64,000 nt of DNA from an uncultured Defluviitaleaceae bacterium. GTDB taxonomy: Bacteria; Bacillota; Clostridia; Lachnospirales; WRBF01. This document shows positions 25,172 through 34,500 of this stretch, one piece after another. The translations under genes were made by a program, and so were the position numbers. The stretch is from contig CAZHPA010000002.1 in NCBI GenBank assembly GCA_964533945.1, positions 68,997-132,996 of the forward strand. The letters run 5' to 3'. The first letter of the stretch is position 1; each line of letters starts with the position of its first letter. The notes beneath the pieces are model-generated. The model did not search any database. It saw only the letters and a program-made list of their open reading frames with translations, and was not told where the DNA came from.

Positions 25172-25200
25172 TTGACAGTATAATGATAAAAATGTATAAT
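25172..25200 (+). promoter_or_regulatory. Consensus sigma-A promoter upstream of the dockerin/cohesin gene pair
   Basis: Exact TTGACA (25172-25177), 17 nt, TATAAT (25195-25200). This implies a leader of ~145 nt before the ATG at 25354. Confidence 0.6.
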
Positions 25201-25353
25201 AATTTTTAAAGCATACATGCGTTTATATTATTTGTTAATAACTAAATTTGCAATCTAAGTTTTTTTAGGGGGGCGAAATCAAACAGATTAAAAACTTTAG
25301 CTTTCATTTTTTTGTGCATGAAAAGTATTAAAAATAAAGGAAGGTGCTAATTA

Positions 25354-25896
25354 ATGTTAAAATCAATTAAAGCAATGTTTTCTTTAGCAGTTATTACAGC
25401 TGTAACTTTTTCAAGCTCTGTTGTTTCTTTTGGTTTAGAAATTAATTCTGTAGAAGCGGTTGGCGGTCAACAAGCTTCTGGTGATAAAATTAGCTCCAGC
25501 GTATATACTACTGAAGAAGGCTATATTATTACACAGCCAAAACTAACGGTTCAACAATTTTTGCAAAATGTTACTCCAAGTGGAAGAGTTACAGTTTATA
25601 AAGGCACAACACAACAAACAAATCAAACAACTATTGCAACTTCAATGGAAGCTAGGCTTTATGATGGCTCGAATGTTATTGACACTTTAACACTGGCTGT
25701 TTTAGGCGACACTAGCGGAAGCGGCACAGTTTCTTCTGGTGATGCATTAAGGGTTTTGCAACATACAACCAAAAAAATAACCTTAACACCAGTGCAACAA
25801 AAAGCAGCCGATGTTACAGGCAAAGACGGCGTTAGTTCATTCGATGCTCTCAATATATTGCAGTTTTCATCAGGAAGAATAACAGAATTTAAATAA
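25354..25896 (+). CDS. Small secreted protein with a C-terminal dockerin-like module
   Basis: 180 aa. Signal peptide, a ~90-aa N-terminal domain, then two dockerin-like segments (GDTSGSGTVSSGDALRVLQ and ADVTGKDGVSSFDALNILQ). The second loop departs from the canonical DxNxDGxxxxxD. Confidence 0.55.
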   Translation: MLKSIKAMFSLAVITAVTFSSSVVSFGLEINSVEAVGGQQASGDKISSSVYTTEEGYIITQPKLTVQQFLQNVTPSGRVTVYKGTTQQTNQTTIATSMEARLYDGSNVIDTLTLAVLGDTSGSGTVSSGDALRVLQHTTKKITLTPVQQKAADVTGKDGVSSFDALNILQFSSGRITEFK

Positions 25897-30822: not shown

Positions 30823-33800
30823 GTGAAATTTTGTAAAATAATTGCAACTACCGCATTATCTTTTTGCTTAATATCTGGGTTATCAAACATTACATATGCA
30901 CAAAACTCGCCTAGCCCACATTATCCGCTTCCTTCAAGGGGTCAATTTGAATATCACGAAGAAGAATTGGCAGGCTTTATACATTTTGGTGTTAATACAT
31001 TTACAGGTTCTGAATGGGGTTCTGGAAATGAAAATCCAAGCGTTTTTAATCCAACAAACCTTGATGTTGAACAATGGGTTAAGGAATTTAAAGACGCTGG
31101 ATTTAAGCGAATTATTATAACAGGAAAACACCATGATGGTTTTTGCTTATGGCAAAGCAAATATACGAACCACGATATGCAAGGAAGCCCATACAAAGAC
31201 GGAAAAGGCGATATACTACAAGAACTTTCGCAAGCTTGTACTAAATATGATATAGATATGGGCTTTTATCTTTCTCCATGGGATGCTCACGAACCAAGCT
31301 ATGGCTATGGAAATGGATATAATGATGAAACAGATACAAATGGCGACTACAACCAATTTTATATGAATCAACTTAGAGAAATTTTAGGCAAAGAAACGTT
31401 TGTTGATGAAGATGGGCAAACAAAATACAAATACGGCAACAACGGCGTTTTTAAGGAAGTTTGGATGGACGGAGCAAAAGGTTCTGGGGCTGCAGCACAA
31501 AACTATAAGTTTAACGAATGGTTTGCGTTAATTAAACAACTTCAGCCTGAAGCCGTAATTTTTAGCCCATATGCTACAGAAATACGCTGGGTTGGAAATG
31601 AAAGCGGAATTGCGGGCGACCCTTGTTGGTCTAAAATTGACGCACAAAGAATCAAAGATGATTATGACATTAGAAAGCAAGAATTTCCGTCATACTTAAA
31701 TTCGGGTGACCCAAACGGTGACATTTGGAGTATAGGAGAAGCTGATGTTTCGTTGCGCCCCGGCTGGTTTTATCATTCGTCGCAAAATCCAAAAACTATA
31801 GAGCAACTAAATAACATATATTTTAAATCTGTAGGGCGTGGACAGCCACTTCTTTTGAACGTTCCTCCGAATAAAGAAGGAAAGCTTTCAGATGAAGATG
31901 TTGCAAGATTAAGACAATTTGGAAACGCAATAAAGCAAACATTTGCAAACGATTTAACACAACAAAGCGGTGTTAGCATAACTGCAAGTTCAACAAGAGG
32001 CTCAGAATATTCTGCCGAAAAAACTATTGATAATAACAACGATACATATTGGACTATGGAAGATGGACAAACAACAGGAAGTATAATTGTTGATTTAGGT
32101 GCAAGCAAAACTTTTGATGTTATTAGTATTCAAGAATATATAAAGCTAGGACAAAGAGTTTCAGGCTTTAAAGTTGAATATAAAGATAAAAGCGGTAATT
32201 GGGTTACATATGGCTCGGGAAAAACTATAGGCTACAAACGTTTAGTTCAAGGTACTGTAGTTTCTGCAAGAGAAATTAAAATAACTATAGAAAGCTCGCA
32301 AGCTGTTCCTTTAATTAGCAGCATTGGGGTTTATAAAGCAAGCGTTGACTTTGAACTTCCAAGCGCCGTTCCTCAAGGGCTTGGCGTTATAACTGCCAAT
32401 CAAATGGAAGCTAGCAGCTGGAACTATGAAGATTCTGATTTCGGACCCGGAACAAGTATGTGGGCAAATTCTGGAACTGCTACATTTAAATTTAATGGCA
32501 CTAAATTTTGGCTTGGAACAACAATTGATTTTTCCCATGGTAATTATAAAGTAACTATAGATGGCGTTGATTATGGACCTATAAACACAAACGGAACACC
32601 ACGCAAAACAAACGCTATAACATTTGAATCTCCGAATTTGCCAAACGGAGAGCATACTGTAACTGTAACTTGCCTTGCAGACAAGCCAAGCAACAACGCA
32701 ATAGGTATTAACGCCGCATATTTTATGGGTGAAGGTGTTAGTATGTTTGATATTGAAAGCAAACCACATAAAGTGCTAGAAGGCGATAGCATTGATGTTG
32801 TTGTTAAACGTTCTGGGGATTTAACAAAACCCGCAAGCGTTTTGTTTACAACTCCTCCAGATAGTGCTGTGCAAGGGCAATATTATGTTGATATTAGCAA
32901 AAGGATTAATTTCTTACCAGGCGAAACTGAAAAAGTTGTTAAAGTTCAAACGTTAAAAGAAGATAGAAATGCTTCGCCTACTCTTACATTTTATGCGGCA
33001 CTATCGGATGCAACCGATGGGTCAATAGTTGGCTTTAACAAAAGAACGGTAATTACAATAGAAAATTCTGACACAATAACACAACCTCCGGCGCAAACAG
33101 TATATACGGAAGCAAACCCATTTATGCTTCCGGCTAAATTAGGAATTGAAAAGCGTTTAGAAGCAGAAGACATACAATTAATTACAGGCGGCAATTCTGA
33201 AACAGACGTTAAAGTTGTTAATGTTTCAGCGGCAAGCAAGTCTAAAATGGTTGATAATTTTAATAGCGGCAATAGTATTAAACTATATTACAATGCACCA
33301 GTTGCAGGTACATATTCAATTAAAATGAACTTTAGAACAAATGCTTCAAATAAAACTGTTTCAATAGTTGGCGAAAACATTAAAGACATAAATAACAAAA
33401 CATTTAACAACACCTCAATGGCAATTCAAACTTCAGCATTTGATATTGTTGTTGAAAAAGAAGGTAAAGGCATAATTGAATTTATAGCAGGCTCAAATGG
33501 AGCGCCCGGAATAGATAAGTTAGATATTTCATATAAAGCAAGTTCTATGGCATATCAAATGCCTATTTCCAACGTTTTTTCTGCTTCTGATAGATTTGTT
33601 TTCCCTTCTGAATTAGGAGCGTTAAAACGCATTGAAGGGGAATATATGGAGCTTGATTCTAGTGAATCTGCAGCCGGTAAAGAAATTAGGCTTGCAAACG
33701 ACACACAAAGAAGCAACGGCAAATTTGTTGATTGGTTTACTGCAAACAACAAACTTCACCTTTACTACAACGCACCGGCGGCAGGAAAATATTTAGTTAC

Positions 33801-34500
33801 AATTAATTTGTTTTCGGGTTCAACAAATAGTTATATAGTTTCAGGCGAAAAACTTGCAAAAACAACTACGTTTGAAATTTCGCCAACTAATGCTTGGGTT
33901 GAACGCAGTTTCGAGCTTGAAATTTCGCAAGCCGGAGAAGGAATGATTACTTTAGCAGCAGGAAGCGGCGGAGCTCCAAATACAGACTATCTCGACATAG
34001 CTCTTATGGAATATTCAGAAAAATCTTCTGCTCCTATAGTTTCAAAAAATCTTGATAGAGAAGTTTATGTTATTAACAACCAACCTGTAGTTTTATCTGT
34101 TTCGGCTTCATCAAGCCAAGGACAGTTAAGTTATCAATGGTTTAAAGGAAGCCAAGAATTAGTAGGAGAAACAAATAATAGTTTAACTGTTTCAGAATCG
34201 GGAAATTATTATGTTGTTATAACAAATATAGAAGACGGCAAAAGTCCTGCAACAGTAAAAAGCGTTTCGTGTGCTGCTATTGAGCGATTTGAAGTTCCTA
34301 ATGAAAAAGAATTTGATATTAACAGCGACGGCACTGTAGATGTTAAAGACATTATTTTATCACTTCAGTTCGCAAAAGACTATAAAGTGCCAACAGCAGA
34401 ACAAGTAGCTATTGTTGATATTAATAAAAATGGTATAATTGAAATAAGCGAAGTTCAATATATACTTGATTCAATTGTTGCCGAGCAGTTAGGAATTTAG
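30823..34500 (+). CDS. Secreted multi-domain GH29 alpha-L-fucosidase with a C-terminal type I dockerin
   Basis: GTG at 30823 lies 7 nt after GAAGG and gives a signal peptide (MKFCKIIATTALSFCLISGLSNITYAQ). The GH29 core has HHDGFCLW and EVWMDGA. It is followed by an F5/8 type C module, a lectin-like module, a Calx-beta-like module, two CBM6/35-like modules and an Ig-like module (LSYQWFKG...YYVVI). The dockerin spans ~34312-34485 (DINSDGTVDVKD ... DINKNGIIEISE). Confidence 0.85.
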   Translation: MKFCKIIATTALSFCLISGLSNITYAQNSPSPHYPLPSRGQFEYHEEELAGFIHFGVNTFTGSEWGSGNENPSVFNPTNLDVEQWVKEFKDAGFKRIIITGKHHDGFCLWQSKYTNHDMQGSPYKDGKGDILQELSQACTKYDIDMGFYLSPWDAHEPSYGYGNGYNDETDTNGDYNQFYMNQLREILGKETFVDEDGQTKYKYGNNGVFKEVWMDGAKGSGAAAQNYKFNEWFALIKQLQPEAVIFSPYATEIRWVGNESGIAGDPCWSKIDAQRIKDDYDIRKQEFPSYLNSGDPNGDIWSIGEADVSLRPGWFYHSSQNPKTIEQLNNIYFKSVGRGQPLLLNVPPNKEGKLSDEDVARLRQFGNAIKQTFANDLTQQSGVSITASSTRGSEYSAEKTIDNNNDTYWTMEDGQTTGSIIVDLGASKTFDVISIQEYIKLGQRVSGFKVEYKDKSGNWVTYGSGKTIGYKRLVQGTVVSAREIKITIESSQAVPLISSIGVYKASVDFELPSAVPQGLGVITANQMEASSWNYEDSDFGPGTSMWANSGTATFKFNGTKFWLGTTIDFSHGNYKVTIDGVDYGPINTNGTPRKTNAITFESPNLPNGEHTVTVTCLADKPSNNAIGINAAYFMGEGVSMFDIESKPHKVLEGDSIDVVVKRSGDLTKPASVLFTTPPDSAVQGQYYVDISKRINFLPGETEKVVKVQTLKEDRNASPTLTFYAALSDATDGSIVGFNKRTVITIENSDTITQPPAQTVYTEANPFMLPAKLGIEKRLEAEDIQLITGGNSETDVKVVNVSAASKSKMVDNFNSGNSIKLYYNAPVAGTYSIKMNFRTNASNKTVSIVGENIKDINNKTFNNTSMAIQTSAFDIVVEKEGKGIIEFIAGSNGAPGIDKLDISYKASSMAYQMPISNVFSASDRFVFPSELGALKRIEGEYMELDSSESAAGKEIRLANDTQRSNGKFVDWFTANNKLHLYYNAPAAGKYLVTINLFSGSTNSYIVSGEKLAKTTTFEISPTNAWVERSFELEISQAGEGMITLAAGSGGAPNTDYLDIALMEYSEKSSAPIVSKNLDREVYVINNQPVVLSVSASSSQGQLSYQWFKGSQELVGETNNSLTVSESGNYYVVITNIEDGKSPATVKSVSCAAIERFEVPNEKEFDINSDGTVDVKDIILSLQFAKDYKVPTAEQVAIVDINKNGIIEISEVQYILDSIVAEQLGI

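Follow-up and report, generated by a model that had tools for sequence, protein, structure and literature searches.

A stretch of 64,000 nucleotides (nt) from an uncultured Defluviitaleaceae bacterium (assembly GCA_964533945.1, contig CAZHPA010000002.1, positions 68,997 to 132,996 of the forward strand), referred to here as the window, carries between positions 25172 and 34500 the genes for a small secreted dockerin protein, a two-cohesin protein with S-layer homology (SLH) repeats, and an alpha-L-fucosidase of glycoside hydrolase family 29 (GH29) with a dockerin-like tail. In our assessment, this locus probably encodes a small non-cellulosomal cohesin-dockerin system for surface display, with the fucosidase as a probable second client. 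Exactly two cohesins and two dockerins were present in the window. Unless stated otherwise, all features described below lie on the forward strand.

The predicted receptor is an SLH-anchoring, scaffoldin-like stalk protein of 1254 amino acids (aa) encoded at 25914-29678. From the N- to the C-terminus, a signal peptide is followed by two cohesins, about 520 aa of stalk, a poly-Ser run, a region without an assigned family, and three SLH repeats. Cohesin 1 (aa 29-164; 25998-26405) scored 46.1 bits against the Pfam Cohesin profile (PF00963), covering profile positions 4-139 of 139, and cohesin 2 (aa 166-297; 26409-26804) scored 32.9 bits, covering positions 4-110. Both passed the Pfam cut-off of 24.1 bits. 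The two modules were 35% identical to each other (E 3e-19), and we read them as a real tandem pair. When compared by sequence with solved structures, cohesin 1 had its best matches, all weak, among the type-I cohesins 1g1k, 2vn5, and 1aoh; for the cohesins, the matches to 1g1k, 2vn5, 3ul4, and 1aoh had E-values of 1e-4 to 4e-2.

The stalk (26805-28373) consists of an MBG_3-like domain (E 0.0031), three YDG stretches (7.6e-26), MBG_2 (4.2e-12), and Flg_new_2 (9.7e-18). It is followed by the poly-Ser linker (approximately 28377-28433) and a pre-SLH domain of about 230 aa (aa 842-1071; 28437-29126), which matched no Pfam family but is conserved in P0121, the close relative described below. The predicted cell wall anchor is formed by the three SLH repeats (PF00395; 29127-29675). 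Scanned separately, these scored 44.6, 32.9, and 20.1 bits; with the cut-off at 20.8, the last repeat falls marginally below it.

Upstream of the scaffold gene, an open reading frame (ORF) at 25354-25896 with a ribosome-binding site (AAGGAAGGTG) encodes a small secreted protein of 180 aa, in which a typical signal peptide is followed by about 70 aa of orphan domain and, at the C-terminus, by a dockerin. The dockerin module (aa 113-178; 25690-25887), with the loops DTSGSGTVSSGD and DVTGKDGVSSFD, scored 28.4 bits against Pfam Dockerin_1 (aa 117-167), above the curated cut-off of 22.9. Its matches to the solved dockerins 8x39, 4uyq, 2ccl, and 1ohz were weak. In a canonical dockerin Ca loop, Asp or Asn occupies positions 1, 3, 5, 9, and 12. 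As read from the sequence, these Ca ligands are partly swapped for Ser, Thr, and Lys in the small protein: loop 1 has Ser at positions 3, 5, and 9, and loop 2 has Thr at position 3 and Lys at position 5. The region preceding the dockerin (aa 28-115; 25435-25698; about 70-90 aa) matched no Pfam family and no solved structure. Single-sequence AlphaFold2 gave a mean predicted local distance difference test (pLDDT) value of 31.5 for the small protein, with only low-confidence beta hairpins in the orphan region. An identical protein, flanked by the same neighbor genes, was found on Logan contigs (SRR10912416, SRR10912417, and SRR10912418).

The genes of the small protein and the scaffold most likely constitute one operon. 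This reading is based on a sigma-70-type promoter at 25172-25200 (TTGACA, a 17-nt spacer, and TATAAT), which matches the consensus at 12 of 12 positions and is located some 150 nt in front of the ATG at 25354; on the gap of only 17 nt between the two genes; on the ribosome-binding site in front of each; and on a 15-bp hairpin with T tracts (29685-29719, no strand assigned), found in a terminator scan between the convergent scaffoldin and hydrolase genes. The original prediction, made from the DNA letters and an ORF list, had placed three genes and their modules in this region, and ORFs and Pfam confirmed all three together with their modules: the scaffold with its signal peptide, two cohesins, and three SLH motifs (the third just under the cut-off, as given above), the dockerin-bearing ORF ending 17 nt before it, and the 1225-aa fucosidase about 1.1 kb downstream. 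It had not included the stalk, the poly-Ser linker, the pre-SLH domain, or the hydrolase and tRNA-Leu genes that follow the scaffold.

Relatives of the scaffold were rare. When 5.8 billion proteins were searched by word index, nothing matched the cohesin region alone, and the whole scaffoldin retrieved YDG, MBG, and SLH relatives only, none of them with cohesins. A HMMER scan of the cohesins against 1.84 billion representatives yielded 60 proteins at an E-value of 1e-3 or lower, only one of which was below 1e-30. This single close relative (P0121; 1905 aa) has three N-terminal cohesins on the same MBG/YDG/Flg_new stalk and is 47% identical to the scaffold overall; its SLH region is strongly conserved, with nearly identical repeats. 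The number of cohesins in this rare scaffold lineage thus appears to be two to three. A metagenome scan with an alignment of the scaffoldin and P0121 found only proteins that share the pre-SLH and SLH region, none with cohesins. The pre-SLH domain also recurred in 407-aa SLH proteins of two metagenome contigs (L004 and L005) and in fragments on two others (L003 and L006).

Beyond P0121, nine other HMMER matches were scanned with Pfam; all nine carried Cohesin, eight were multi-cohesin proteins, and some also had dockerins. According to a local SLH profile, three further matches (P0125, P0132, and P0163) carry three SLH repeats each. Where the neighborhoods of SLH-anchored relatives could be retrieved, a dockerin gene preceded the SLH-anchored cohesin gene in two of three cases. 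In the first, a 6.7-Mb chromosome (L016; GCA_037991315.1), a 475-aa NHL/Flg_new_2/Dockerin protein is encoded 2 nt before a gene for four cohesins, fn3, and three SLH repeats, and this pair (6571-12365) is set among housekeeping genes. In the second (L019; GCA_004369245.1, 2575-20077), a 1723-aa fn3/beta-helix/HID/Dockerin protein, the HID being Shr-like, is encoded ahead of P0132 at a distance of 254 nt; next after P0132 comes another cohesin-SLH gene, and housekeeping genes surround the group. The L016 dockerin, which is Pfam positive, aligned with the dockerin of our small protein at 35% identity over 60 aa without gaps (E 1e-10). Because this gene order is found in two of three relatives, the small dockerin protein is the best-supported client of the scaffold. 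The combination of dockerin cargo and SLH cohesin receptor in two unrelated genomes may represent a recurrent non-cellulosomal cassette. Cohesin 1 was closer than cohesin 2 to all cohesins of P0125, P0132, L019b, and P0163, so these comparisons point to no particular cohesin-dockerin pairing.

The third gene (30823-34500) has a GTG start behind a ribosome-binding site (AGAAGGTG) and encodes a GH29-B alpha-L-fucosidase of 1225 aa. The enzyme comprises a signal peptide, the GH29 domain, an F5/8-C module resembling carbohydrate-binding module (CBM) family 32, a CE2_N-like beta-sandwich, Calx-beta, two CBM-like repeats that are 32% identical to each other (E 3e-27), Ig, and the dockerin. In Pfam, Alpha_L_fucos was matched at 1.3e-32 and F5_F8_type_C at 1.2e-15. 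The catalytic region (aa 31-506) matched SpGH29 of Streptococcus pneumoniae (6org) with an E-value of 2e-139, and further matches were GH29 of Ruminococcus gnavus (6tr3; 2.6e-138) and AfcB of Bifidobacterium (3ues; 2.8e-81). We take these three proteins to be GH29-B enzymes, that is, alpha-1,3/4-fucosidases acting on Lewis-type epitopes of host glycans. Both the catalytic domain and the C-terminal beta-sandwich of the window enzyme are homologous to characterized GH29-B enzymes, and its assignment as a host-glycan-type GH29-B rather than a plant cell wall enzyme is supported by sequence homology. An identical protein is present in NCBI-derived data (P0181).

The C-terminus of this enzyme differs from those of its homologues. 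An LPXTG-like C-terminal signal was present in 79 of the 120 best homologues, and a precomputed Dockerin_1 domain in none of the 120; in a direct scan of the same proteins, a C-terminal double Ca loop was found in the identical copy P0181 only. Thus, the dockerin appears to stand in for a wall anchor. The homologue of Clostridium sp. UMGS990 (L001; 46% identity) ends in three FIVAR domains and LPXTG, and that of Anaerobium acetethylicum (L002; 40% identity) has FIVAR and four DUF4214 domains at this end. The C-terminus of the fucosidase family may be regarded as a surface attachment slot that is occupied by a dockerin in this organism, the dockerin apparently having taken the place filled in related enzymes by sortase or FIVAR anchors. 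Since it sits where homologues carry wall anchors, the enzyme would need a surface cohesin, which is the strongest indirect argument for docking. The obvious candidate receptor is the SLH-anchored two-cohesin protein encoded 1.1 kb upstream.

Two neighborhoods of homologues were also recorded. In the gut Clostridium sp. UMGS990 (L001, 4868-13945), the gene of the fucosidase homologue follows directly on that of an LPXTG-anchored GH33 sialidase containing CBM32 and five FIVAR domains, and the two are a sortase-anchored pair of host-glycan enzymes. In a metagenome assembly from ENA (L011, 3780-11783), a GH29 homologue (P0217; 48% identity) with FIVAR, Cohesin, and an LPXTG-like tail adjoins a GH84 (NagJ-like) enzyme with FIVAR, an enzyme-borne cohesin arrangement of the Clostridium perfringens type.

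The C-terminal 65 aa of the fucosidase (aa 1161-1225; 34303-34497) contain two 12-residue Ca loops, DINSDGTVDVKD (34315-34350) and DINKNGIIEISE (34417-34452). The loop pattern occurred three times in the six frames of the window, always within the small protein or the fucosidase, so chance is excluded for the loops. We regard the tail as very probably a divergent dockerin on the basis of three results. First, it aligned without gaps to the L019 dockerin, which itself scored 47 bits on Dockerin_1 (40% identity over 47 aa; E 3e-12). Second, the loop starts are spaced by 34 residues in the fucosidase, small-protein, L016, and L019 dockerins, and these four line up with one another free of internal gaps; the alignment of recoverin, an EF-hand protein, to the tail required a 2-residue gap. 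Third, a leave-one-out profile, built from the other three of these four dockerins and searched against the six-frame translation of the window, found the tail at an E-value of 7.7e-10 (32.8 bits), with a runner-up of 3.1 bits. The corresponding search recovered the small-protein dockerin at 1.2e-7, and exactly two dockerin modules were found in the window by this profile scan. Against solved structures, the tail gave EF-hand proteins and dockerins intermixed, with weak E-values, and the single-sequence AlphaFold2 model of the Ig-plus-dockerin tail (mean pLDDT 47.7) was unusable.

Several results weigh against a shared display system that includes the fucosidase. On Dockerin_1, the tail scored 14.2 bits within the whole protein and 19.0 bits alone, below the cut-off of 22.9, and EF-hand_1 outscored Dockerin_1 on it (26.8 bits; cut-off 25.4). 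The dockerins of the fucosidase and the small protein gave no BLASTP alignment with each other, and one scaffold may not accept both. The fucosidase gene forms its own transcription unit, separated from the scaffold gene by a hydrolase gene on the other strand and by a tRNA-Leu gene. For the small protein itself, Lys occupies ligand position 5 in the second Ca loop, and the SLH-anchored relative P0163 (L017 and L018) has no dockerin gene upstream. Further cohesins or dockerins may also be encoded outside the 64 kb considered here. The original prediction is therefore modified on several points. A canonical fucosidase dockerin was proposed, and the two Ca loops and the leave-one-out result agree with a dockerin, but the Dockerin_1 score does not reach the cut-off; among the profile searches suggested, those for Cohesin, SLH, Alpha_L_fucos, F5_F8_type_C, and the small-protein Dockerin_1 were positive, and that for the fucosidase Dockerin_1 was sub-threshold. 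Three linked genes were proposed, and operon-like linkage holds for the first two but not for the third. Finally, display of the fucosidase through a two-slot scaffold was proposed; a display role fits the wall anchors of the homologues, but docking on this particular scaffold is not established.

These points lend some weight to an alternative that we consider possible but rather doubtful, in which the scaffold serves only the small dockerin protein, and perhaps other dockerin proteins encoded elsewhere in the genome; the stalk and the small tip protein would form a two-part adhesin-like surface fiber. The fucosidase would then find its cohesin beyond the window, perhaps one borne by another enzyme, as is the case in C. 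perfringens, or its tail would be no more than a stabilizing, Ca-binding EF-hand pair whose proximity to the scaffold gene is coincidental. The unrelated cytoplasmic hydrolase gene and the tRNA gene in between, the mutual BLASTP failure of the two dockerins, and the better EF-hand_1 score all agree with this alternative. So do the MBG, YDG, and Flg_new domains, which are typical of adhesins; the partner genes in L016 and L019, which are those immediately upstream of the cohesin-SLH gene; and P0217, a related GH29 that belongs to an enzyme-borne cohesin system beside a GH84 enzyme. However, the tail is dockerin-like in both spacing and sequence, and its location at the wall anchor position of homologues calls for a surface receptor, the nearest candidate for which is only 1.1 kb away. 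The presence of exactly two dockerins in 64 kb, next to two cohesins that are just 35% identical to each other, also speaks against this alternative.

According to the surface-display reading that we prefer, the promoter at 25172 would drive an operon for two secreted proteins, the 180-aa dockerin protein and the 1254-aa stalk protein. As expected from established SLH biology, the three C-terminal repeats would hold the stalk protein non-covalently on the cell wall, and the MBG/YDG/Flg_new stalk would keep the two N-terminal cohesins away from the wall. These distal cohesins would bind dockerin-bearing proteins, presumably in a Ca-dependent manner. The co-transcribed small protein would be the most probable cognate client, and the GH29-B fucosidase, encoded 1.1 kb downstream, a probable second one. 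At the tip of the stalk, the fucosidase would remove alpha-1,3/4-linked fucose near the cell, so that the products would go to the producer; its likely substrates would be the Lewis-type epitopes of mucins, milk oligosaccharides, and N-glycans. Two specificities on one stalk are possible, given that BLASTP does not align the two dockerins and that the cohesins share just 35% identity.

A broader proposal goes beyond this and seems unlikely to us at present. It holds that this locus and the gene pairs of L016 and L019 exemplify a general plug-and-display cassette, as yet undescribed, by which non-cellulolytic Firmicutes encode a cognate cargo directly ahead of the wall receptor for it. Here, two divergent cohesins of distinct specificity would place on one stalk a small adhesin-like tip protein and a fucosidase whose sortase signal had given way to a dockerin, forming a minimal, genetically compact, SLH-anchored adhesin-plus-enzyme "mucinolysome."

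It is very improbable that the cohesin-like modules bind no dockerin and that the protein is an S-layer-associated adhesin with structural or ligand-binding (for example, glycan-binding) beta-sandwich tips, the dockerin-like modules acting independently: the cohesins are indeed very divergent (best solved-structure match E 1e-4; no match in the 5.8-billion-protein word search), the stalk domains are adhesin-like, and non-cellulosomal cohesins are, to our knowledge, mostly without experimental partners, but both modules lie above the Pfam Cohesin cut-off, their detectable relatives, where checked, are multi-cohesin scaffoldins, some with dockerins, and a dockerin gene lies in the same operon here, with a like arrangement in L016 and L019.

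A cellulosome was also considered and rejected, as the window contains no CBM3, cellulase, or hemicellulase and its sole dockerin enzyme is the GH29-B fucosidase. The locus is best described as a small non-cellulolytic relative of the display systems known from the cellulosome, the amylosome, and the mucinolysome, not as a new type of machine.

The closest functional counterpart is the mucinolysome of Limousia (Akresi et al., Gut Microbes 2026; PMC12997984; preprint, PMC12632915). Both systems have a non-catalytic multi-cohesin scaffoldin and secreted dockerin-bearing glycosidases for host glycans, including GH29, and for both, attachment to the cell wall has been proposed for the foraging of host glycans rather than cellulose. 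Limousia has three to six scaffoldins, as many as 12 cohesins, and as many as 22 carbohydrate-active enzymes with dockerins, and its anchor is the LPxTG scaffoldin cSca5, reached through scaffoldin-to-scaffoldin docking (PMC12997984). In contrast, the present locus, known from its sequence alone, has one two-cohesin scaffold, itself SLH-anchored on a long MBG/YDG stalk, with one dockerin enzyme and one small dockerin protein visible in 64 kb. In PMC12997984, a mucinolysome is defined by a multi-cohesin scaffoldin together with dockerin-bearing carbohydrate-active enzymes for mucin glycans in the same genome. In composition, where this calls for two or more cohesins on a scaffoldin and for one or more mucin-type glycoside hydrolases with a dockerin, the locus agrees with the definition, the GH29 dockerin being counted as a dockerin-like tail. 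The filter used for Limousia (Pfam E < 1e-4; coverage > 60%) would miss this fucosidase dockerin, and some cohesins and dockerins of C. perfringens and Limousia likewise fall under Pfam-based thresholds (PMC12997984). The original prediction of a glycan-foraging rather than a cellulolytic complex agrees with the GH29-B host-glycan enzyme, but this idea is in print already, both for C. perfringens and, as the mucinolysome, for Limousia (PMC12997984), and the concept has likewise been described for Paenibacillus guangzhouensis (PMC11557425).

For the architecture of the scaffold, the nearest precedents are presumably OlpA and OlpC of Acetivibrio (Clostridium) thermocellus, which we take to combine a type-I cohesin with SLH and to hold single enzymes on the wall. 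The SLH-anchoring scaffoldins of A. thermocellus and the present one share N-terminal cohesin(s), three C-terminal SLH repeats, and direct tethering of dockerin proteins, the last being a predicted function here; one of the type-I cohesin matches, 3ul4, is deposited as "Cellulosome-anchoring protein." Their known clients, unlike those proposed here, are plant cell wall enzymes or the scaffoldin CipA, they are not known to have an MBG/YDG/Flg_new stalk or a co-transcribed small dockerin protein, and the sequences resemble each other only marginally (E 1e-4 to 1e-2). Among cellulosomes, scaffoldins that anchor through SLH form a standard category (PMC11557425).

Non-cellulosomal cohesin-dockerin systems with host-glycan glycosidases, including a dockerin-bearing GH29, are also represented by the glycosidase and toxin complexes of C. 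perfringens (Adams et al. 2008, as summarized in PMC12997984). These have single cohesins (X82) on the enzymes and dockerins after FIVAR, with no dedicated scaffold and no SLH anchor. The window does not fit this type, as the fucosidase has no FIVAR and the cohesins are on a non-catalytic SLH protein; no C. perfringens dockerin was among the solved-structure matches of the fucosidase. The amylosome of Ruminococcus bromii (Ze et al. 2015; PMC4611034) similarly uses cohesin-dockerin pairs for a substrate other than cellulose in a gut Firmicute with small non-catalytic dockerin proteins, the Sas proteins (PMC9112005). It differs from the locus in its starch substrate (GH13), in having some cohesins on enzymes, and in anchoring that is not via SLH. 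Finally, "scaffoldin-containing" microbes, among them Paenibacillus guangzhouensis and Lachnoclostridium sp. MSJ-17, have just two cohesins on the largest of their scaffoldins and are presumably non-cellulolytic (PMC11557425, section 15). P. guangzhouensis has SLH-anchoring scaffoldins and GH29, GH20, GH2, and GH31 enzymes fused to dockerin-cohesin pairs as monovalent adaptors (PMC11557425), whereas the enzyme described here carries a dockerin only and its candidate scaffold has an adhesin-like stalk.

Each element therefore has a precedent, and the cohesin-dockerin display of host-glycan glycosidases is not a new concept. What seems particular to this locus, as judged by its predicted modules, is the position of the cohesins at the tip of an MBG/YDG/Flg_new stalk (otherwise found in P0121 only), the anchoring of the scaffold directly through SLH, a very small dockerin protein that is co-transcribed and contains an orphan domain, and a dockerin in place of a sortase anchor. 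If binding is confirmed, the locus would be among the smallest natural cohesin-dockerin systems, with two cohesins and two very different dockerins in 9 kb, and would be convenient for studying how specificity is encoded. Beyond this, it would exemplify an enzyme family that gives up covalent sortase anchoring in favor of non-covalent docking on a stalk of the S-layer type, and it would carry the recently proposed mucinolysome idea over to a further lineage with a different anchoring chemistry.

Between the scaffold and fucosidase genes, the reverse strand carries the gene for a signal-less alpha/beta-hydrolase (29719-30471) and a tRNA-Leu(TAG) gene (30555-30636), the latter served by a promoter with a 12/12 consensus match (30687-30659, reverse strand). 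Genes for tRNA-Met and tRNA-Pro lie just upstream of the locus (24222-24410, reverse strand). An Rfam scan of 24000-35500 found tRNAs only and no leader or riboswitch. A mobile-element origin was set aside in view of the flat GC content and the housekeeping genes on both sides, although no search for an integrase or flanking repeats was made.

The window as a whole has a low GC content (about 0.29-0.40) and contains flagellar genes. At 49387-63999 on the reverse strand, a giant ORF of at least 4870 aa is open to the window end, with its N-terminus outside. It combines repeats of the Ig_3 and Ig_7 families with two F5/8-type-C (CBM32-like) modules at the C-terminus and a long acidic tail rich in Glu and Val; no cohesin, dockerin, SLH, or LPXTG was found in it. 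This protein may be another glycan-binding surface protein. At 6834-13196 on the reverse strand, an unusually long FliD (981 aa) is encoded together with an unusually long flagellin (797 aa), whose conserved N- and C-terminal helices are separated by a large central insert.

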